Of a DNA stretch of 64,000 nt, positions 978 through 14,501 are shown in pieces. This DNA is from an uncultured Verrucomicrobiae bacterium (GTDB lineage Bacteria > Verrucomicrobiota > Verrucomicrobiia > Chthoniobacterales > UBA10450). The position numbers were made by a program, and so were the translations under genes. The stretch's first letter is position 1. Each line of letters starts with the position of its first letter. Where the stretch lies: contig CAWBSH010000030.1 in the NCBI GenBank assembly GCA_963791385.1, forward strand, positions 188,381 through 252,380, written 5' to 3'. The notes below the pieces were generated by a model. It worked only from the letters and a program-made list of their open reading frames with translations. It was not told where the DNA came from and did no database searches.

Positions 978-1102
978 GCCTAACGAGAACAAGATCAGCG
1001 ACGGCTACCGGGAGCGAGCGCTAAATCGAAGTGGAAGTGTTTTAATCATGGGAAAACGTGCTCGTGCAACGGGTAGCCGTTCGCTGCATCGCAGGGTTAG
1101 AC
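978..1102 (-). repeat. Integron attC site (attC5, counted from attI)
   Basis: The plus strand reads GCCTAACGAGAACAAGATCAGCGACGGCTACCG...CGGGTAGCCGTTCGCTGCATCGCAGGGTTAGAC. The arms are complementary, with 3 extra bases on the high-coordinate arm. Confidence 0.8.
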
Positions 1103-1115
1103 GGCGCGGTCGAGT

Positions 1116-1385
1116 TCAAAGCCGGCGTTTATCGCAGAATTCTTTTCCTGCCTCGCTTAGCAGAATATCCCCAGTTCTTTGCAGGCTCACTCGCGCGGTT
1201 CCGTCCTCCGGAAACTCTAACTTAGCTAATTTGACTGGAAGATCGATATATCCGGCCGCGTGTAGCTCCAGCACCGCGTCTGCTGTGATGCCCTGAAGCT
1301 CGCCTTCGGCGGGTTGCTCACCATGATTGAGGCGGCAGAACAGGCGGAGCGTCTTCTCGGCATCTTGGCTTAACTGCGTATTCAT
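1116..1385 (-). CDS. Hypothetical 89-aa protein, second gene of a two-gene cassette
   Basis: An internal ATG of ORF 1116-1574 gives MNTQLSQDAEKTLRLFCRLNHGEQPAEGELQGITADAVLELHAAGYIDLPVKLAKLEFPEDG.... This ATG overlaps the upstream gene's stop as ATGA at 1382-1385. The stop lies 13 nt before attC5. Confidence 0.55.
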   Translation of the reverse strand: MNTQLSQDAEKTLRLFCRLNHGEQPAEGELQGITADAVLELHAAGYIDLPVKLAKLEFPEDGTARVSLQRTGDILLSEAGKEFCDKRRL

Positions 1386-1630
1386 CGGGATGTGAACATG
1401 CTGGTGCAGAATCCTAACAGTAGAGAGACGACGATAACCATGATAATGATCAAGCATCCCACGTTGAAGACGCGTTCCGTCCCGGATTTGCCGAGGAATC
1501 CACGTTTGATTGGGTGACCGCAATGCGGACACTTGTCCGCTTCCGGACTCACTGGATTGGCGCATGAAGGGCATTGTTGGAGAGCCTTATATTTTGATTT
1601 GGGTGTGTGCGAGTGCCGTCTAACGTCCAA
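1382..1630 (-). CDS. Zinc-ribbon membrane protein (CxxC...CxxC followed by one TM helix). The start is uncertain.
   Basis: ORF 1382-1699 contains CPSCANPVSPEADKCPHCGHPI followed by the hydrophobic stretch VFNVGCLIIIMVIVVSLLLGFC. No ATG, GTG, TTG or CTG lies between the R' box of attC4 and the first Cys. The nearest start is TTG at 1630, inside attC4. Confidence 0.55.
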   Translation of the reverse strand: MDVRRHSHTPKSKYKALQQCPSCANPVSPEADKCPHCGHPIKRGFLGKSGTERVFNVGCLIIIMVIVVSLLLGFCTSMFTSR

Positions 1631-1740
1631 GCTCAGGCACAGCCGCCAGAGCGGGACGTGGCCTGCAATGATGATGTTCGAGTTTCCATAGTCGGTCAAA
1701 TGCCCGGCGCAGCGGCTGTTGCCTGCAGCGCTTGTTAGGC
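1618..1740 (-). repeat. Integron attC site (attC4)
   Basis: The site reads GTCTAACGTCCAAGCTCAGGCACAGCCGCC...GCGGCTGTTGCCTGCAGCGCTTGGTTAGGC. The arms are complementary, with extra bases on the high-coordinate arm. Confidence 0.75.
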
Positions 1741-2416
1741 GCGAGGATGTCCCCCGCGTTTATCACACCATCGCCAATAGCCGTTTTCGACTCGTTCTGC
1801 AAGTTCAGCGACTACCTTTAAGCCAACGTCCACGAAGGTGTCATCGACCGGCTTGTCATCCGATTGCACCTCGTCAGCAATGCGTGTGAGCGTGATCTTG
1901 ATCTGAGCTGGGAGATCGCGATCGAGCTTGTGGATATAACGGTTCCTGAGTTCCCTGATGGCATCGAGGTTCCTCCAGAGGTCCTTGCTGACCTCGAATT
2001 CCAAACCGCATGTTCTGGTCAGAAAGAGTATGTAACGGTTGACGTCACGGCAACTGTCTCTGGTCAGGCTCTGGATCCGCCCCGATCTCTGAAGCGATTT
2101 CACGAACCACGTCACTCAGCAGGTTCTCGATCAGCGCGAGACCTTGAGAAAGAACAGCGCATCGAAGGAATTCTGGAAAATACTCTTCGTCGGAAAGAAC
2201 TACCTCGTCTTTGATGATCTCCATTTCTCCTGAACCATCTGTCTTTCCGGCTTGAAGGTCGGTCAGGTATCCTGCAATGAAACGCCGTGTAAACTCCCAG
2301 TGCCGTTGAAGGCTGTTAAGGCGGGACGCGAACTCGTAGAATGCCCGGAGAAACCGCTCGCTGGGTTGATACAACGGTTCGAGTTCAAGTGCGTCGTTGA
2401 AAGCATCGTTCGCCAT
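1735..2416 (-). CDS. HEPN-domain protein (RiboL-PSP/Swt1-like Rx4H motif) in its own cassette. There is an apparent frameshift near 2045-2115.
   Basis: ORFs 2045-2416 and 1735-2115 overlap in different frames. The second carries AIRELRNRYIHKL, which is R-x4-H. A CCCC run at 2080-2083 is a candidate indel site. The TAA stop is the TAA of the attC4 GCCTAAC box. Confidence 0.6.
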
Positions 2417-2434
2417 CTAATCTTCGTCTTCAGC

Positions 2435-2557
2435 GCCTAACGAGAACAAGATGAGCTGCTGCGAGCGGGAGCGCGCTCGGTGGCGGGCGAAGGCGTGGAA
2501 GCCATGGAAAACGAGGTCGGACGCCGGGTCGCAGTCAGCTCCATCGCTTTGTTAGGG
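2435..2557 (-). repeat. Integron attC site (attC3)
   Basis: The site reads GCCTAACGAGAACAAGATGAGCTGCTGCGA...TCGCAGTCAGCTCCATCGCTTTGTTAGGG, with complementary arms. Confidence 0.75.
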
Positions 2558-3116
2558 CTTTCTGAACGGCCGGACCTTGCAGCGCAGTCCATAACGCGTC
2601 CCATTCGCTCCCAAGCCAAGAGGAAGCATCTTCGGAAAGCGCCTCAAGGCGAAAGGGCTCGCCGTAATAGAGGCCCTCGGTGTAAAAGTCTAAGCCGTGC
2701 TCCACAAGTTGCTGAGGCAAAAGGCGAGCGACCTCCGATACGTCCAATGGCGGGCCATCGCCGCTCAAAAATGCCTCTGATACAAGATGCGCATAAATCA
2801 GCTTGGCAACCGCTTCATCCAGTCGCCAGTTTAGGGAGATCGCCATCTGGCCTCCCGACACTTCTGGCAGGAGTTGATGCGCCTTCTCAAGGCTTTCGTT
2901 TACCTGACGCTTGCGTTCTTCTGCTGACATCGCAAGAATCAACGGATCAATTTCGTCGTCAGTGCGGGGGCGAACGCCGCCCAAGCCATACAGTTGAATG
3001 CCATCGACGAGCGAAATGAATAACGTCGCGCGGTTCAACTCCTCATTTATGGATAACAAGTGTCTGGCTATATCGTGATCTGACAACCATACAACTTCAT
3101 GGACATGCAGGTGCAT
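2535..3116 (-). CDS. Hypothetical cassette protein (~193 aa) with no recognisable domain
   Basis: This is ORF 2535-3134 trimmed to the ATG at 3116, which lies 3 nt after the attC2 R' box (MHLHVHEVVWLSDHDIARHLL...). The reading frame passes through the attC3 R'' box and stops 16 nt inside the site. Confidence 0.55.
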   Translation of the reverse strand: MHLHVHEVVWLSDHDIARHLLSINEELNRATLFISLVDGIQLYGLGGVRPRTDDEIDPLILAMSAEERKRQVNESLEKAHQLLPEVSGGQMAISLNWRLDEAVAKLIYAHLVSEAFLSGDGPPLDVSEVARLLPQQLVEHGLDFYTEGLYYGEPFRLEALSEDASSWLGSEWDALWTALQGPAVQKALTKRWS

Positions 3117-3119
3117 AAG

Positions 3120-3243
3120 ACCTAACGAGACCAAAATGAGCGACGGCGGACGAGAACGCGCGTCGCTCGGAGTGGGAGTGTGGAAGTCATTTCAACAGTG
3201 GAGCGTACAGCGGTCCGCCGTTCGCTCCATCGCATGGTTAGGC
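3120..3243 (-). repeat. Integron attC site (attC2)
   Basis: The site reads ACCTAACGAGACCAAAATGAGCGACGGCGGACG...CGGTCCGCCGTTCGCTCCATCGCATGGTTAGGC, with complementary arms. Confidence 0.8.
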
Positions 3244-3741
3244 CTTTTCACCGTAGCAAGTCGGGGTTGAGTTCGAATGATGCCGGATTTCCGTGCCGTC
3301 GGCGCCAAAGCTGAGCGCGCTCTCCGCATGAAAACTAATGTATGCATCTGCTCCCGGTTCTGCAGCAATCTTCTGGAGCTCTGCGAACTGGTACGGCTTG
3401 AGGTCGCCGTGAAATCTCGTCTGGCCTTGCGCGAGTGCTTGCAGAATGCGTGTGTCGACGGAGTCGAGACACGTCTTTAGCCGCTCTTTGAGCGGCTTTG
3501 GCTGCGACGCTTTTAGCGCCGCATCTACTTGCTCCTGCATCTGTGTTTTCCACTGGTCGTCTAAGCTCTTCTTGAGCATGCCGAGAAGCGGTGTAGCGAA
3601 AGTGACAAAGAGGCTGATAAAGAGCGACAGCTTGTGTAAGCGGCGCGGCAGAAGGCGCTCAAAGCGGACAGCAACGCTACAGAGCGCTCCGACCAAGCTG
3701 ATCCAGAGTGCGTGATTCGCAATCCAAATGAGGATGCGCAT
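3238..3741 (-). CDS. Hypothetical cassette membrane protein (~167 aa, two N-terminal hydrophobic helices)
   Basis: This is ORF 3238-3795 trimmed to the ATG at 3741, which lies 5 nt after the attC1 R' box (MRILIWIANHALWISLVGALCSVAV...LSLFISLFVTFATPLLGML). The TAA stop lies within the attC2 box GCCTAAC. Confidence 0.55.
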   Translation of the reverse strand: MRILIWIANHALWISLVGALCSVAVRFERLLPRRLHKLSLFISLFVTFATPLLGMLKKSLDDQWKTQMQEQVDAALKASQPKPLKERLKTCLDSVDTRILQALAQGQTRFHGDLKPYQFAELQKIAAEPGADAYISFHAESALSFGADGTEIRHHSNSTPTCYGEKA

Positions 3742-3746
3742 GTTAG

Positions 3747-3870
3747 GCCTAACGAGAACAAGCTGAGCCACCGCTGGCGGCGGCGAGCGTGGCAAACACT
3801 CTGAACAGTTTCATAAAATCAAATGTGGATAATACAACGGGCAGCGGTGGGCTCCAGCGATTGGTTAGGC
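3747..3870 (-). repeat. Integron attC site (attC1)
   Basis: The site reads GCCTAACGAGAACAAGCTGAGCCACCGCTGG...CAGCGGTGGGCTCCAGCGATTGGTTAGGC. The arms are complementary, with 2 extra bases on the high-coordinate arm. Confidence 0.8.
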
Positions 3871-3936
3871 TGGGCGAACAAAGCCGGCGGTAATCGGTTT
3901 GGAGCAAAGGCATCCGGACTTTGGCGAGTTTGTGTT

Positions 3937-4389
3937 CTACCTCTTTTTTCGCGGATCGTCATTAGGATTAATGAAGGTCACGCCCGCCGGGCCAGTAAAA
4001 GTCACCTGGACAATAACCTCCGTATCTTCCGTCCACGTATAATGCGCGTGCCCAGCCGGAAGCACGAACACACTCCCAGGACGCAGCTCCACCCCTTTAC
4101 TTTTATCAAAGCTCTGCCCAAAAGAATTCCAGTAATTCCCGCTTAACACCGTCACCACTTCTGCATACGGATGCGTGTGCGGAGGTACCCTGTAGTGCGG
4201 CGGAAACTTCGTCCGCTGCACTATCGTCTCAGCCTTCGTCGGGTCCCCGACTAAGATTACCGTCTGGGCACCCTTGAACACTGGATGCTCTGTCCACACC
4301 AAGTCCTCCGCCTTCATCATCTTCATCTCTTGCCCGGATCCGCCCCCGGCCAGCCCCAGCAGCGCTAAACCAATCAGTATCCGTTTCAT
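3937..4389 (-). CDS. Secreted cupin-domain protein, first cassette
   Basis: There is a signal peptide, MKRILIGLALLGLAGGGSG. Cupin motif 1 is HTHPYAEVVTVLSG (HxH-x3-E-x6-G) and motif 2 is GSVFVLPAGHAH (G-x5-PxG-x2-H). Confidence 0.8.
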   Translation of the reverse strand: MKRILIGLALLGLAGGGSGQEMKMMKAEDLVWTEHPVFKGAQTVILVGDPTKAETIVQRTKFPPHYRVPPHTHPYAEVVTVLSGNYWNSFGQSFDKSKGVELRPGSVFVLPAGHAHYTWTEDTEVIVQVTFTGPAGVTFINPNDDPRKKR

Positions 4390-4428
4390 ATTTTTATTTC
4401 ATCAGCATAAGCAATGTCAGGCGCATAA

Positions 4429-4485
4429 GCCTAACGAGAATTAGACGAAGGTTCGTAATAAAAGGCGAACATTTTTTCGTCTAAC
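4429..4485 (-). other. attI-like primary recombination site
   Basis: The minus strand reads TAA-T-GTTAGAC-(31 nt with an internal hairpin)-GTCTAAT-TCTC-GTTAGGC. This is an inverted L/R pair ending in the same TCTCGTTAGGC junction as every attC R' end. An upstream direct copy (GTTAGAC) is also present. Confidence 0.5.
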
Positions 4486-4486
4486 A

Positions 4487-4780
4487 TTATCCTGAAGGCG
4501 GGTTTTCGACGATCGGCGACTGGTCCAGTGGGCTGCGGATGTGGACGCCGGGACGGTTCAGCACATGGGTGTAAATCATGGTGGTAGCGACGTTTTTGTG
4601 GCCGAGCAGTTCTTGAACGGTACGAATGTCGTACCCGTTTTCAAGCAAATGGGTGGCGAAGCTGTGCCTCCGCGTAAAAGCTACGCTCACGCGGTCGGCG
4701 TGATCGGATTCCTTTTGAGATAATTTGCAAGCTGAGCTTTTAGAAATCGCCTGCCGTTTCCGCTCTTCAAGTAGCGTTCT
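4487..4780 (-). pseudogene. intI: Integron integrase intI, C-terminal fragment only (box II and catalytic Tyr region)
   Basis: The C-terminal part of ORF 4487-5008 reads [57 protein letters not shown]. The THVLNRxxxGVxSPLD tail is typical of IntI rather than XerC/D. About 230 N-terminal residues are absent. The fragment is unambiguous from about 4693 downward, and the junction is estimated at about 4780. Confidence 0.75.
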
Positions 4781-5008
4781 CGCCCTCAGCCAAATGAATT
4801 TAGGCGGATGGCCGAGCACAATAACTCTTTGATAGAAATCAGTATCCTTGGAGACGATCGTGAAGCCTTGCTGCTTTGCCCACTTCCAAACCGCGCTGTC
4901 ATCGGCTTGCTTCAAGCCGACAGTTTTGATGTGCGCCGAATCGGGAAACAAATCAGCAATCCGCTGAACAATCCTATGCGAAACATTCCCATCCAGAAGA
5001 AGCTTCAC
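4781..5008 (-). pseudogene. DUF5615 (PIN-like, Mut7-C type) toxin, truncated after ~76 aa and fused in frame to the intI fragment
   Basis: The N-terminal part of ORF 4487-5008 reads [75 protein letters not shown]. This matches the DUF5615 pattern up to the conserved IWLR, where family similarity stops. Confidence 0.6.
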
Positions 5009-5229
5009 GCAGGGGCAACGAAAAGCTTCCTCTCGCGATCAGCGGCAAACGCCAAACACGCCTGAATGTCTTCGCGGGTGAGCTCGGGAAAATCCCGTAG
5101 TACCTGGTCTTCGGTCATGCCCCCGGCTAGATACTCGAGGATGTCTTGAACCGTAATGCGCATTCCGCGAATGCACGGCTTACCGCTGCGCTTGCCAGGC
5201 TCGATGGTGATGATTTTGGAGTAGTCCAT
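5005..5229 (-). CDS. DUF433 antitoxin-like protein
   Basis: The sequence [63 protein letters not shown] is the typical DUF433 pattern. There is a 4-nt overlap with the downstream DUF5615 ORF. Confidence 0.8.
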
Positions 5230-5296
5230 CTCGGGAAATGTTAATTTCGGAGGTTTGGGTGGTCAAATGCCCGTCAGACGCTGGAGGTCCCGACAC

Positions 5297-8200
5297 TCAC
5301 GCGCGCACAGGCACGCTGGCAGTGCGCTCGAGTTTGCCCCAGCTTACCCAGGCGCCTTTGATGGCGCGCAGGATGGCTTTCCAGATGCAGTAACTGAGCA
5401 TGGGGCGATAGATCAGGCGCATCGGCAAAATGCGCCAGGCGCGCAGGATCGGTTCGCGTTCCAAAATGCAGGCCAGCGTGGCGAGGAGCACGTCCATCGC
5501 CAGGAATGTGATGATGAACGGCAACACCGCGCGCCACACGCCAAATGGGAGTGAGGCCAGCAGGAACAAATCCACCATGGGCGTAACAGCCACGAGTATG
5601 ATTTGGAAAAACCAAATGTTCGGCAAACTGAACCAGCCGAGCGCGCGATAGTTCCAGTTGAACACCATGTCGCGATGCTTCCATAAACATTGCAAAGTGC
5701 CGTACGCCCAGCGGGAACGTTGCCGCGTCAGCGCGCGCACAGTTTCGGGCGCTTCGGTCCACGCGATGGCGTCGGGCACATACACGATGCGTTGATGCTG
5801 TCTATGTAGCGAGAGAGTGAGATCGGTGTCTTCGGCCAGCGTTTCCAGACTCAGGCCGCCCGCTTCGGTGATCGCATTCTTGCGAATGGCGCTAATCGCA
5901 CCCGGCACAACAGTGATGCAGTTCCACCGGTTATACGCGCGCCGGTCCAGGTTAAAGCCGCAGGTGTATTCCAGCGCCTGACAACGCGCGATGAACGTGC
6001 GCAGATTACCGACCTTCGCATGACCTGACACCGCACCGATGCTGCTTATCTGCAAACGGCTCGAGCAAACGCGGGAGCGTGTCGCGTTGACATTGCGTGT
6101 CGGCATCAATGAAAACAACGATGCCGTTATGCGCGGCAGCGAGACCACGTTGAAGCGCACGGGCTTTTCCGTGATTTTGCTGTTGCAACAATCGGACGCG
6201 CGATTCTCCCCGTGCAATGCGCTCAACTTCCGCAGCGGTTTGGTCGCGCGAACCGTCGTCCACGACGACGACTTCAATTTCGCCTTTGTAATCTGTGGCA
6301 AGGAGGGTGCGCAAAGTTTCCGCGATTACTTTCTCTTCATTATATGCAGCCATCACCACGCTGATCGGCTCTGCAAAATCTGATTTCGGTCCACGACGAA
6401 AACGAAACGCAAGCCAGATCACAATCAGCGTGCGAACAACCACGAGCGCCGTCGCGACGATCATAAAGGCCCAGAGGAATTCCTCGATGCTGTGGTAAAC
6501 GCGAAACCCGGTGCTGCTCACGAAACGGCTGAGCGATTGCGCATTGCCCTGCACCGGTGGCATCAACGCGTCGCGCGTCGTTCCCAGCAACGTGCTCAAC
6601 GGCACAACGGTGTCGCCACGCGTATGCAGCCAATCCAAAATGCGCGGAAGCGCTTCGACGGTTTGCGAGCGGTCGCCGCCCGCGTCATGCAACAGGATTA
6701 CGCTGCCATCGTGTCGTTGTTGTTTGATTCGTCGCAGGATGATGTCTGCCCCCGGCTTCGCCCAATCTTGTGGATCGATATTCTCCAAGACCACGAGGTA
6801 ATTGAGGTCTTCCGCGATTTTCAGCGGAGTCAGTTCACTAAGGTCGGTCGGGCCGGTGTCCGCGGCGTAAGGCGGGCGAAACAAGGTGGTCGCTCGGCCA
6901 GTGATCGTTTCGAGCAATAGCTGTGTCGCGTTCAGCTCCAGCCGTATGTGCTCCGGCCAGCAGAGCGCCAGGTTCGGATGGTAATACGTGTGGTTCCCAA
7001 TCTCGTGTCCTTCATCGACGATCCGACGAACAAGCGCGGGGTAACGCTCTGCGTTTACTCCCACGACGAAAAACGTCGCCTTCACGTTTGCTGCTTTCAG
7101 AATGTCCAGGATCTTCGGCGTCCATTGCGGATCAGGGCCGTCATCAAAAGTGATCGCCACCTGATGCTCGCCGCCCGCGCCCTGGTGATAGAGCGTTGGG
7201 AATTCCGCAAACTTTACATATTTGGCGGTGAGATAGCCGTCTCCATCGACAGCCAGCTTTCGCATCCCATCGGTGCGATCCTCGTCAACGGTGACGATCT
7301 CGCCATCGCCGACGTCCGTGATCGTGTCTGTCGATTTGATCAGTTCGAGCGCCTGTCGGGTTTGATTATCGAACTTGAAATCGCGCGGGACGCTGAGCGC
7401 ATCCCAGATTGCCGGGTCCTCGCTGCCTAAGCGATAAAGCGCGAACCCGCCGGCTTTCTGATCGCGCACCGCGCGCAATTGGTTGAGAAATGTCACAGCA
7501 TCCAGAAACCAAACGCCGTGCTCGGCGTCTTCATCCTCGAAATAAAAGTAGGGGCTGTAACTCGGCCCCTGCACATCGACGCTCTCGATCTCGGCGTCGT
7601 TTGCGCGGCTCATTGCTTCGGAAAAACTGATCAGCTCGCCCTTTTTACCGCCGATCGGCCAGTCGTATCCGTAGCTGCCAATTGCGATGATCCATTGTTT
7701 GGCGTCGGAACCTTCGAGCAGCACGTGTAACCAGCCTTCAAACCAAGAGCGGGAGGCCAGCGGCCCCGGCGGGTCCGTTTCCGAGGTTTCATCGAACAAC
7801 ATCGCCACGAAACGATCAATGTTGTCGCTGAGCGCATCGATATCGACGTAATCGAGCTCCTGCCCGGGCTGCACGCACAACCACAGCTCTTTGTTGTCGT
7901 CATGCAACGCGTCGGCGAACTTGTCGATGAATGCGGTGAGATCCTTCTTGTAAGCCGGGTCGATTTGTTCCCAATCAATTACTACCCCCGCGGCCTTCGC
8001 GTTACGCAAAACCGAGAGCACATTTTCGATAAAGTGATCCTGCCGTGTCGGCGGCCCGTGCGCGAGATTCTCAATGGCCTCCGGCTGCCAGGTGTCACCG
8101 ACCAGATTCGTCAGCAGCGGCATCAGCGCGATGCCTTTGTTCGCCGCCAGTTTTGAGACACGACTATCGGAATCAATCTGCAAGTTCCCCGTGCCATCGA

Positions 8201-8786
8201 TCACCGTCATCCATTCTGGACAGAGATGCGTAATCTGAGCCGCATGTTGCTGGAGCGACGCGTAGCTGTCCGGATCGTCATTCACGTAGAATGCCAGTCG
8301 GACTTCGTTGGCAGGCGGTTTCTTCCGAGGGCGCGGCGAAGTAGCCGGCGCTGTTCCGGCAAGCTTTTTCGCCGCCTGCCGTGCGGCGCTAAATTTTTGC
8401 CACAGCAGAGAAGCCGGAGACAACTGGCCGGCCGGATTCTGTCTTTGCAACGCGCGCAATTGACCCTTCAACTGCCGCAACGAAAACGGCACGTTCATTT
8501 TTGGTGTGACAAAGAGCGTTTGAACGAAAAGCACCAGTGCCACAAAGAACACCACGCCGCCGGCAAGCAGAATGAGACGCAGCCGCGGCCAGCGTTTACC
8601 GCTGGGATCGGAGAAAACAAACGGTGTAACCTGTTCCGGAGGAAACTCAGCCATGCGAGGCATATAATCGCGCAAGTCCGAGAATAAGAAAATCCGATTC
8701 TGTGACGATCGCTTGGGTATCGGAGGCAACCGAAGCGAGGGTGCGACAGCCAAAGTTCTGGGGGATCCGGTACAGGCGTCCGCCAA
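5297..8786 (-). CDS. Tri-domain exopolysaccharide enzyme with an N-terminal TM helix, a GH18-like domain, a NodB polysaccharide deacetylase domain and a processive GT2 synthase domain. There is an apparent frameshift near 6036-6050.
   Basis: ORF 6006-8786 carries VVIDWEQ (GH18-like), VAITFDDGPDP...GHEIGNHTYYH (NodB) and VVMAAYNEEK...VVVDDGSRD...FIDADT (GT2). ORF 5297-6301 continues with IGAVSGHAKVGN...TRQRSRWAYG (the QxxRW motif) and C-terminal TM helices. Confidence 0.8.
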
Positions 8787-12977: not shown

Positions 12978-13015
12978 TTCAAGACCGATGGTCGCGATGT
13001 ATGGAATTGGAGATT

Positions 13016-13381
13016 TCAGATTGTAGATCTCAAATTTGAAGATGCTGACTTACGCGAGGCTACAAAAATCGCGACCAATTCGCCCGCTTCTGCAAACAAG
13101 GACTGAACTCGTTTTACTGGAAGCAATTTTGACTCAATGATTAATTCGAGCCACAGCTGAGTCTCATCTGCCTCCTCAAGGACCACGCCCATTTTGGCAA
13201 CGAATTCACTTCGGGAGCGAGCGCGACAAGCGGCACGATAATTTGCAGCGACCGACGTGCCGCAGCGAACAAGTTGGTTGGCAATTGCTCGTCCCTCAAT
13301 TGTCTTTGGCAGTGCGGCCACCAGCTTGATAACCCGCAGTGCAAATCGCTTCGTCCGCAGCTTTAACTCGTCAGCTGTCAT
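13016..13381 (-). CDS. Four-helix-bundle protein (23S rRNA intervening-sequence protein / Avd-like family)
   Basis: The sequence MTADELKLRTKRFALRVIKLVAALPKTIEGRAIANQLVRCGTSVAANYRAACRARSRSEFVAKMGVVLEEADETQLWLELI is the characteristic family pattern. Confidence 0.8.
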   Translation of the reverse strand: MTADELKLRTKRFALRVIKLVAALPKTIEGRAIANQLVRCGTSVAANYRAACRARSRSEFVAKMGVVLEEADETQLWLELIIESKLLPVKRVQSLFAEAGELVAIFVASRKSASSNLRSTI

Positions 13382-13418
13382 CCCTCACAATCTGCAATTT
13401 AAGATTTACAATTTGCAA

Positions 13419-14501
13419 TTACTCCTGGATTGCGCGCTGCCGAAGCGCGTTATCGCAGAGGACGAGCGCGGCCATCGCTTCGACGATCGGCACCGCCCTC
13501 GGGAGAACACACGGATCGTGCCGTCCACGGGCAGCAAGCCTGGCCTGCTCGTTTGAACTGGTGACGGTTTTCTGTTGAAGCGCAATGGTCGCGGGCGGCT
13601 TAAACGCAACACGAAAGCAAATGTCTTCGCCGTTACTGATCCCGCCTTGGACGCCTCCGGAGTTATTCGTTTTTGTCCGAATTCTTCCATCACGGATTTC
13701 AAAAGCATCATTGTGCTGCGAGCCCTGCATCCGCGTCGCTGCAAACCCGGAGCCGATCTCAAAACCTTTTGCGGCCGGTATACTCAGCATCGCCTTCGCC
13801 AGGTCTGCCTCGAGCTTGTCAAACACCGGCTCGCCAAGTCCGGGTGGGATGCCGCGCGTGACGCACTCAACGATGCCGCCAATGGAGTCGCCTTGACCGC
13901 GAATCTCCTCGATCAGTGAGATCATCCTTTTCGCAATCGCAGCATCCGGGCAGCGAACAATGTTTTTTTCCACATCTCTGATCGTCACGGTAGAACGGTC
14001 GATCTTCGCCGTGACCTCATGGATTTGCGTTACGTATGCAACGATCTCGAAATCGGCGTAGAAAGTTGTCAAAACCTTCTTCGCAATTGCGCCCGCGGCA
14101 ACGCGGCCAATGGTTTCGCGCGCAGACGCGCGACCGCCGCCTTGCCAGTTTCGGATTCCGTATTTCGCCTCGTAAGTGTAATCGGCGTGCGATGGTCGAA
14201 ATTTGCGCGCGCTCTCGCTGTAATCTTCCGGTCGAGCGTCCTTGTTCCGGACGAGAATTGCGATCGGAGTGCCGAGCGTCTTTCCTTCAAAAACGCCGGA
14301 CAGAATTTCGCATCGATCCTCCTCTTTGCGCTGCGTCGTAAGCTTGCTTTGGCCCGGGCGACGACGATCCAGCTCTCGTTGAACGTCCGCTTCGGAAATT
14401 TGAATGCGTGGCGGGCAACCGTCGATCACTACTCCGATACCGCCGCCGTGCGATTCACCAAAAGTAGTGACGCGAAAGAGCTGGCCAAATGTGTTGCCCA
14501 T
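13419..14501 (-). CDS. aroC: Chorismate synthase
   Basis: The sequence [31 protein letters not shown]...RPSHADYTY...GGRASARET is the canonical AroC pattern. Confidence 0.9.

Follow-up and report, generated by a model that had tools for sequence, protein, structure and literature searches.

The open reading frame (ORF) analyzed here lies on the minus strand at 4487..5008 of a 64,000-nucleotide stretch of DNA (the window: contig CAWBSH010000030.1 of assembly GCA_963791385.1) from an uncultured soil member of the Verrucomicrobiae. It begins with GTG, encodes 173 amino acids (aa) and overlaps by 4 nt the stop codon of a DUF433 gene (5005..5229). Located at the head of a sedentary chromosomal integron with an “inverted integrase” layout, it is very probably a non-functional mosaic of three parts that arose through two rearrangements in succession. 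Its three origins are the first 75 codons of a DUF5615 toxin gene, the 3' end of a GIY-YIG gene plus the end repeat of the element that carries it (residues 76-113), and the tail of an integron integrase, IntI (residues 114-173). DNA alignment with relatives puts the toxin/GIY-YIG breakpoint at codon 75/76 (~4784-4786) and the opening of the IntI part at codon 114 (4669).

Composition of the mosaic ORF

Pfam matches the ORF to DUF5615 (E=3.7e-28, residues 1-93) and, in its C-terminal half, to Phage_integrase (E=1.9e-15). When residues 1-76 are scanned alone, the DUF5615 match (E=1.2e-26) shrinks to residues 1-75. The C-terminal half scores best against the NCBIfam integron integrase model TIGR02249 (91.7 bits, model positions 256-314 of 315), ahead of PRK15417 IntI (71.5), XerD (70.9) and XerC (67.8). 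All of these scores are far under the full-length cut-offs (265 for TIGR02249) because only a fragment is present, and the full IntI catalytic domain (boxes I and II, RKHRH-Y) is lacking. The sequence-only reading of this DNA had proposed a two-part chimera, with a truncated DUF5615 toxin joined in one ORF to the last ~70-95 residues of an integron integrase. Both end parts are confirmed by the Pfam and NCBIfam matches, and the closer kinship to XerC/D that it had allowed for is not what the scores indicate; however, the IntI share is only 60 residues and the middle part had been missed.

The toxin part (4784..5008, -) holds codons 1-75 of ~111 of a PIN-like toxin and is truncated after the motif FIWLR. 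Among 1,364 DUF5615 homologues the close ones are ~111 aa long and continue past FIWLR as FIWLRVGNCPTSLI...LLVLER; the closest of all (P0003, 111 aa) is 81% identical to the mosaic across residues 1-76 and has no similarity beyond, bearing out the suggestion that the toxin had lost its 3' end. Nor is the C-terminal half an extension natural to DUF5615 proteins, since it is confined to the small cluster of this lineage, which consists of a protein identical to the mosaic product (P0243, in NCBI and ENA) and a 175-aa variant (P0001). An exact look-up of the 173-aa product gave no match, although the identical P0243 is present in the clustered protein collection. We also considered, and rejected, a frameshifted but otherwise complete toxin: none of the three frames after FIWLR resembles the 36-residue C-terminus of the 111-aa homologues, and the +1 frame is GIY-YIG. 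As had been stated, no single-base indel can repair the mosaic.

The middle part begins with 99 nt (4687..4785, -) that are the 3' end of a GIY-YIG gene, codons ~60-91 with the TGA stop at 4689-4687, shifted to the +1 frame with respect to the mosaic ORF. Read in that frame, 4785-4687 encodes the C-terminal end of GIY-YIG ORFs that are intact, at 91-93 aa, on the metagenome contigs L008 and L009 (~90% nt identity), and the piece aligns equally to the C-termini of the intact ORFs on L011, L014, L015 and L018. It runs into the right terminal inverted repeat of the GIY-YIG element (4670..4694, -; 25 bp, CCGCGTGAGCGTAGCTTTTACGCGG), a hairpin palindrome (DNA fold z = -3.2) that contains the stop codon of the GIY-YIG gene as well as a GTG that overlaps it (GTGA). 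This repeat is near-invariant across 13+ loci and occurs once in the window, against 0 copies expected by chance. The 32 GIY-YIG codons of the window give no Pfam match and do not include the PF01541 core of the superfamily, which the intact relatives possess (L009, E=3.7e-16). When residues 79-173 were used as the query, the best 120 protein matches were all short (55-167 aa), and many of them have a common peptide behind quite different N-termini; one of them, P0134 on L017, opens as a GIY-YIG protein and is a fusion of GIY-YIG and IntI tail. A single long ORF arises because the GIY-YIG piece is stop-free in the toxin frame and the end repeat leads into the IntI tail without a shift of frame. 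No second intI, second GIY-YIG gene or second copy of the repeat was found in the 64-kb window.

The IntI remnant (4487..4669, -; 60 codons and the stop) corresponds by tblastn to residues 274-334 of a 337-aa IntI reconstructed from contig L032, and includes box II (RHSFATHLL), the LLGH motif and the catalytic-tyrosine motif (MIYTHV). An additional domain near patch III sets IntI apart from XerC/D; it is absent from the window but found in P0145, L030 and L032, which are relatives within the same clade. The earlier statement that no further IntI sequence exists here holds for the whole window, where tblastn with the relatives' IntI recovers the tail only, the first ~270 residues being absent.

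History of the locus and alternative explanations

A scan for the GIY/IntI junction pattern retrieved thirteen further metagenome contigs, one of them a chance match. By tblastn, nine contigs (L008, L009, L011, L014-L018 and L021) have the same recurrent order: an IntI N-fragment of 38-56 aa, an intact GIY-YIG gene, the junction, an IntI C-fragment and attI; the central part of IntI was found at none of these GIY-bearing loci. Two of the contigs, L017 and L018, present the ancestral layout of the window's own locus. Their GT2 gene is 84-87% identical in nucleotides to that of the window and its stop codon is followed directly by IntI_N, GIY-YIG and IntI_C, with cassettes behind attI and no toxin-antitoxin (TA) pair. 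The search for an intact intI at this position, which the sequence-only reading had recommended, thus leads to an intI already split around a GIY-YIG gene. Structurally full-length intI genes of the same family, free of the GIY-YIG gene, occur on L032 and L030; each runs in the direction of its cassettes and each is frameshifted, and L032 adjoins ftsH, as L009 does.

Since the TA-free relatives already lack the intI core, the join to the TA pair would be the second of two steps. In the first and older one, common to other lineages, we infer that the intI core (residues ~56-273) was replaced by a ~350-bp element composed of a 91-codon GIY-YIG gene between ~23-bp palindromic inverted repeats; the outcome would have been an IntI N-fragment, the element and an IntI C-fragment immediately before attI. 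In the second, particular to this species group, an illegitimate join would have connected toxin codon 75 to GIY-YIG codon ~60, at the cost of the last 36 codons of the toxin, the IntI N-fragment and GIY codons 1-59, i.e. two thirds of the nuclease gene. The earlier proposal that one deletion took both the toxin 3' end and most of intI is therefore right about the toxin, but L017 and L018 indicate that the intI core had gone before.

A single deletion, by which the truncated DUF5615 gene came to be fused straight to the final 70-95 codons of a neighboring, otherwise intact intI, would nonetheless account for both end parts as they were described, and weak Pfam and XerD alignments do reach back to residue ~79-84. 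We consider it very improbable: residues 76-113 are ~90% identical in nucleotides to the GIY-YIG 3' end, in another frame, plus the terminal repeat; the 99 GIY-like nucleotides are absent from the intI of L030 and L032; and the TA-free relatives at the locus were without the intI core to begin with. TA cassettes are common in sedentary chromosomal integrons, and the TA pair here is on the cassette strand, so that it might have arrived as a cassette inserted by IntI at a secondary site in intI or in the GIY-YIG element. We give this hardly any credence: the TA segment, bounded on the left by the GT2 stop codon and on the right within the toxin ORF, is not flanked by an attC site or a GTTRRRY core, and the toxin is cut short at the join. 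Finally, an assembler could have made a chimeric join at a repeat: the window and its sister contigs have indels and split genes of the long-read type, and the related contig L007 breaks at attI. Yet the TA-GIY'-intI' junctions are the same in eight assemblies from several samples, namely the window, six ENA metagenome contigs and one deposited NCBI metagenome-assembled genome (MAG) of an uncultured Verrucomicrobiae bacterium (alignment of the window with L001-L006 and L010), and the window has just one copy of the junction repeat. Six metagenome contigs, which come from at least three samples, moreover encode an identical DUF433 protein, and in each of them its gene follows the same GH18/deacetylase/GT2 gene. 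With identical junctions in eight assemblies the join is not a misassembly, the artefact against which the sequence-only reading had cautioned, and the likelihood of an assembler's join is close to nil. A scan of the junction over 185,579 species representatives had one match, the Verrucomicrobiae MAG, with a 22-base pattern that is probably too strict for a taxonomic survey.

Three considerations weigh against a wholly inert mosaic with a two-step history. The IntI tail lacks the look of a pseudogene in free decay (omega ~0.05-0.15 across loci). The order of events is drawn from only two short syntenic contigs, L017 and L018. Lastly, several sister contigs have 1-nt indels within the mosaic ORF and neighboring genes of the window are split; the window and its sisters look like long-read assemblies with indel errors, and because frames in such assemblies are unreliable, the “in frame” nature of the fusion is not secure.

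The GIY-YIG element

The GIY-YIG protein family has 1,310 homologues, mostly of 91 aa, and all of the intact gene copies are flanked by inverted repeats (left GCGCGTAAAAGCTTCGCTCACGCGCC, right, as reverse complement, CCGCGTAAAAGCTACGCTCACGCGGT). Each repeat is a hairpin palindrome, and left and right are identical at 22/23 positions in L011 and L015. The element thus has defined ends, of which the window keeps the right one only. To what extent it is associated with intI is best judged from the contexts reached via the nuclease protein alone, a sample without bias towards intI. It comprises six copies, five of them inside intI remnants (L024a, L025-27, L028-29, L033, L034). The sixth, L024b (L024:560-920, -), is outside intI: it follows the last attC of an array and adjoins the 3' end of a UbiD gene; it has a perfect left repeat, and the last UbiD codons run into its right repeat. 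Two longer protein calls (P0245, P0357) provide two additional left junctions inside intI. Within intI the left junctions fall after residue ~20, 36-38, 55 or ~78 and the right ones before 271, 274, 280 or ~304-306, while the neighbors of the intI loci vary (GT2, ftsH, Rce1-like and others). The element therefore has copies at unrelated sites, and with the element-free intI of L032 and L030 there are both occupied and empty sites.

The history of the element is discordant with that of its flanks. L009 and L018 have the same left junction and a proportion of synonymous differences (pS) of 0.20 in the GIY-YIG gene, against 0.8-0.9 in the flanks, whereas L017 and L018, which represent one chromosomal locus, have a GIY pS of 0.56 against a flank pS of 0.1-0.2, and their left junctions differ. 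Variation in the IntI tail begins at the very first codon past the repeat. No target-site duplication is visible at the element junctions. Judged from the sequences compared, these features point to a mobile element that has precise ends and is strongly associated with intI; for the mode of its predicted movement, homing-like repair and transposition are both candidates, and a nuclease role is predicted for the 91-aa protein.

A more specific proposal, which we put forward tentatively and think somewhat doubtful, is that the 91-codon gene and its ~23-bp palindromic repeats form an autonomous selfish element that specifically invades integron-integrase genes. Such an element might cleave an intact intI and be copied in by repair, as in homing, or might move in a transposon-like fashion; in either case the catalytic core of intI would be replaced and precise junctions left, and the IntI tail left behind would have its translation coupled to that of the nuclease gene and might still be in use. 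In the literature searched, no description of such a GIY-YIG element in intI was found. If the targeting of intI is true, the element would be a natural “integron killer”, a new kind of bacterial GIY-YIG mobile element and a route not described before for switching off chromosomal integrons and creating clusters of attC sites lacking integron integrases (CALINs). Its presence inside intI remnants in at least ten distinct contexts makes the recurrent element worth following up, as does the 60-codon IntI tail, which behaves as if under purifying selection.

When L008, L009, L011, L015 and L018 are compared, the last ~120 nt of the element (GIY-YIG codons 59-91 with the right repeat; window 4670-4785) are far better conserved at synonymous sites (pS ~0.16) than either the remainder of the nuclease gene (0.69) or the IntI tail next to them (0.80); L014 is an exception. 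This could be the mark of a cis-acting end, of an overlapping frame or of a recent exchange.

The IntI tail

The sequence of the IntI tail appears constrained. Across 13 disrupted loci the proportion of nonsynonymous differences (pN) is ~0.06 and pS ~0.8; L001 and L008 differ by 1 nonsynonymous and 17 synonymous changes, and within the lineage that carries the TA pair the core of the tail has 5 synonymous changes and 1 nonsynonymous change. The sequences may equally reflect a tail that is still expressed and used or functional intI alleles that were captured repeatedly and not long ago; with synonymous sites saturated, dN/dS separates neither these two readings nor one ancient disruption from many recent ones.

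Tyrosine recombinases swap their C-terminal tail between subunits, and one can thus imagine the tail as an expressed protein of ~67 aa, kept by selection, which would start at the GTG overlapping the GIY-YIG stop and possibly either modulate an integrase acting in trans or serve the GIY-YIG element; in the window it would come off the TA transcript. The low pN and the counts above favor this, as do the 4-nt overlap of start and stop and the shared frame of the IntI tail and the GTG in the right repeat, which holds for all junction classes lacking a loop insertion (residues 271, 274, 280, ~305 and ~306). Nevertheless, a low omega is just as much expected if the element has repeatedly captured functional intI alleles, a scenario with which the discordant histories of element and flanks agree. 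Furthermore, the length of tail retained varies from 18 to 60 aa, a loop insertion breaks the frame at two loci, and a tyrosine at a conserved position has become cysteine in 4/5 strains of the window lineage. On balance we hold an expressed tail to be unlikely, and prefer to see in the mosaic a non-functional remnant.

Strains that are otherwise near-identical carry one of two alleles of the IntI tail, ~76-80% identical to each other. The boundary between the alleles of the window and L001 is so sharp that site-specific recombination at the GIY/IntI junction was considered, and set aside, there being no GTT core at that point. A homologous crossover suffices to explain the boundary, because ~35 nt of repeat are invariant; repair synthesis with flap removal would look the same.

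The attI site and the cassette array

Directly behind the stop codon of the ORF is an attI-like site (4429-4485, -) composed of GTTAGAC, an inner inverted repeat and an L box (GTCTAAT), TCTC and an R box (G|TTAGGC). It shares ~95% identity with the attI that follows the element-free intI on L032, its fold has z = -2.9, and homology from strain to strain stops precisely at G|TTAG, which puts the crossover point between 4435 and 4434. There follows an array of five cassettes (978..4428, -), co-oriented with the intI remnant in the “inverted-integrase” layout, whose attC sites of ~125 nt lie at 3870-3747, 3243-3120, 2557-2435, 1740-1618 and 1102-978 (all -) and read R'' RYYYAAC ... R' GTTRRRY. 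The assignment of the attC sites rests on these cores, on the repeat families D1-D5 and on folding, the single-strand folds pairing R'' with R'. The first cassette encodes a cupin (3937-4389, -; Pfam cupin matches). The locus thus has at least two attC sites with cassette ORFs and an attI from which variation begins, and it is CALIN-like because there is no functional integrase in cis.

The sequence-only reading had called the array immobile in cis and CALIN-like. The absence of a functional intI in cis is correct, but “immobile” is too strong a word, as the arrays differ among strains. The GT2 gene of the window is 99% identical to that of L001 and L004 and 93% identical to that of L002, L003, L005 and L010; nevertheless, its allele of IntI tail and attI is that of the latter group. 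The cassettes differ among all three strain groups, and the window diverges from the L002 group exactly at the attI G|TT. (The R'-box clustering of cassettes is crude and misses some attC sites; it serves only to show the three array groups.) On L007, which belongs to a lineage further removed, the cupin cassette (window 3842-4423; L007:50-630) is the sole cassette and 97.8% identical, whereas the flanking hydrolase gene is only 87% identical; this is evidence for either horizontal movement or differential loss of single cassettes. The array is therefore not frozen, at least at the level of the population, and its turnover could be due to an integrase acting in trans or to homologous exchange of whole arrays via the conserved repeat and attI. 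A dead integrase common to strains with different arrays bears on whether the arrays of CALINs stay dynamic by means of trans-acting integrases.

The same attI/attC family is accompanied by a disrupted integrase in both orientations: the classical divergent layout is found on L024, L025, L028, L033 and L034, and the inverted one in the window and on L009; on L032 an inverted intI is free of GIY-YIG. This suggests that the integrase segment has been inverted within one integron family. Genes for transposases of the IS110/IS1111 type (PF01548/PF02371), a family of insertion sequences with members known to target attC, lie in or beside the arrays of several relatives (L002:14303-15406, L007:2249-3382, L009:9261-10391). 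In the fourth cassette of the window (1735-2416, -) two overlapping ORFs of 123 and 126 aa in different frames are probably one frameshifted gene.

The toxin-antitoxin segment

The DUF433 gene that precedes the mosaic (5005..5229, -) is intact and encodes a predicted antitoxin of 74 aa (PF04255, E=8.9e-27). In gene order, 4-nt overlap and domain matches the segment resembles the predicted type II pairs DUF433/DUF5615 (COG2442 / PIN-like COG4634); it differs from them in that the toxin has only 75 of its ~111 residues, lacking the last 36, and is fused to foreign sequence. The pair is thus incomplete, with a whole and conserved antitoxin that is effectively an orphan. Within the lineage DUF433 has 2 synonymous changes and 1 nonsynonymous change, the toxin fragment 3 and 4, respectively, plus indels, and the GIY-YIG piece (in either frame) 0-1 and 3; these counts fit a kept antitoxin beside decaying debris. 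The toxin fragment is presumably inactive while its antitoxin has been retained.

A sigma-70-like promoter match (5238..5266, -; TTGACC-17-TAACAT) is situated just upstream of the DUF433 gene, but with 1 match against 0.8 expected by chance it is weak evidence. No convincing terminator was found before attI, and read-through from a putative TA promoter via the mosaic ORF and attI into the cassettes, as the sequence-only reading had proposed, is plausible.

The TA segment (4784-5296) is ~99% identical to that of L002, L003, L005 and L010, whose GT2 gene is only ~93% identical. The block of TA and GIY' seems to have spread among sister lineages by recombination.

Relationship to known systems

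The mosaic ORF itself is genome wreckage, and a degenerate integron is a known category. Like a CALIN or a degenerate chromosomal integron with an intI pseudogene, the window has a cluster of attC sites, no working integrase in cis and an adjoining intI remnant. Such remnants were recognizable near 15 of the 279 CALINs surveyed by Cury et al. (2016, PMC4889954). Unlike those, the remnant of the window is a 60-codon tail kept with attI and joined in a mosaic to parts of two foreign genes, and the same disrupted allele is common to many lineages. Most CALINs have no recognizable remnant of intI; this wreck shows a concrete and datable path from a complete integron to a CALIN.

The “inverted integrase” layout is already known from the literature (Treponema denticola group). 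With these integrons the window, L032 and L030 have in common that intI and the cassettes run in the same direction, with attI behind the 3' end of intI. The window differs from the T. denticola group in its Verrucomicrobiae host and in belonging to an attI/attC family also found in the classical divergent layout (L024, L025, L028, L033, L034).

The GIY-YIG element recalls the free-standing GIY-YIG homing genes (phage T4 seg, I-TevI family) as well as the IS1111-attC elements and the group IIC-attC introns: it is repeated in one family of targets with precise junctions, its history is discordant with that of its flanks and its target is inactivated. Yet it encodes a protein of only 91 aa with no recognizable DNA-binding domain and is flanked by palindromic inverted repeats; it replaces ~200 codons of its target rather than simply inserting, and its predicted target is intI, not attC.

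Neighboring genes

Beyond the TA segment lies a GH18/polysaccharide-deacetylase/GT2 gene (5297-8786, -) that is split in the window into two overlapping ORFs (6006..8786 and 5297..6301) and is a single gene of 1118 aa in the sister contigs compared (L001, L004, L005). A 1-nt indel is the probable cause, whether through a long-read error or because the gene became a pseudogene very recently. At the other end, past the last attC, an alpha/beta-hydrolase gene (1-1005, -) is fragmented; an intact version of 354 aa is found on L007 (754-1754, 87% nt identity). Finally, between the chorismate synthase gene and gatB (window ~13000-13430) strains have either a 23S_rRNA_IVP gene, whose product is a four-helix bundle, or a PDDEXK_3 gene (L001/L004 ~1811-2215 compared with L002/L003 ~2783-3196), apparently a small selfish gene swapped between near-identical backbones.

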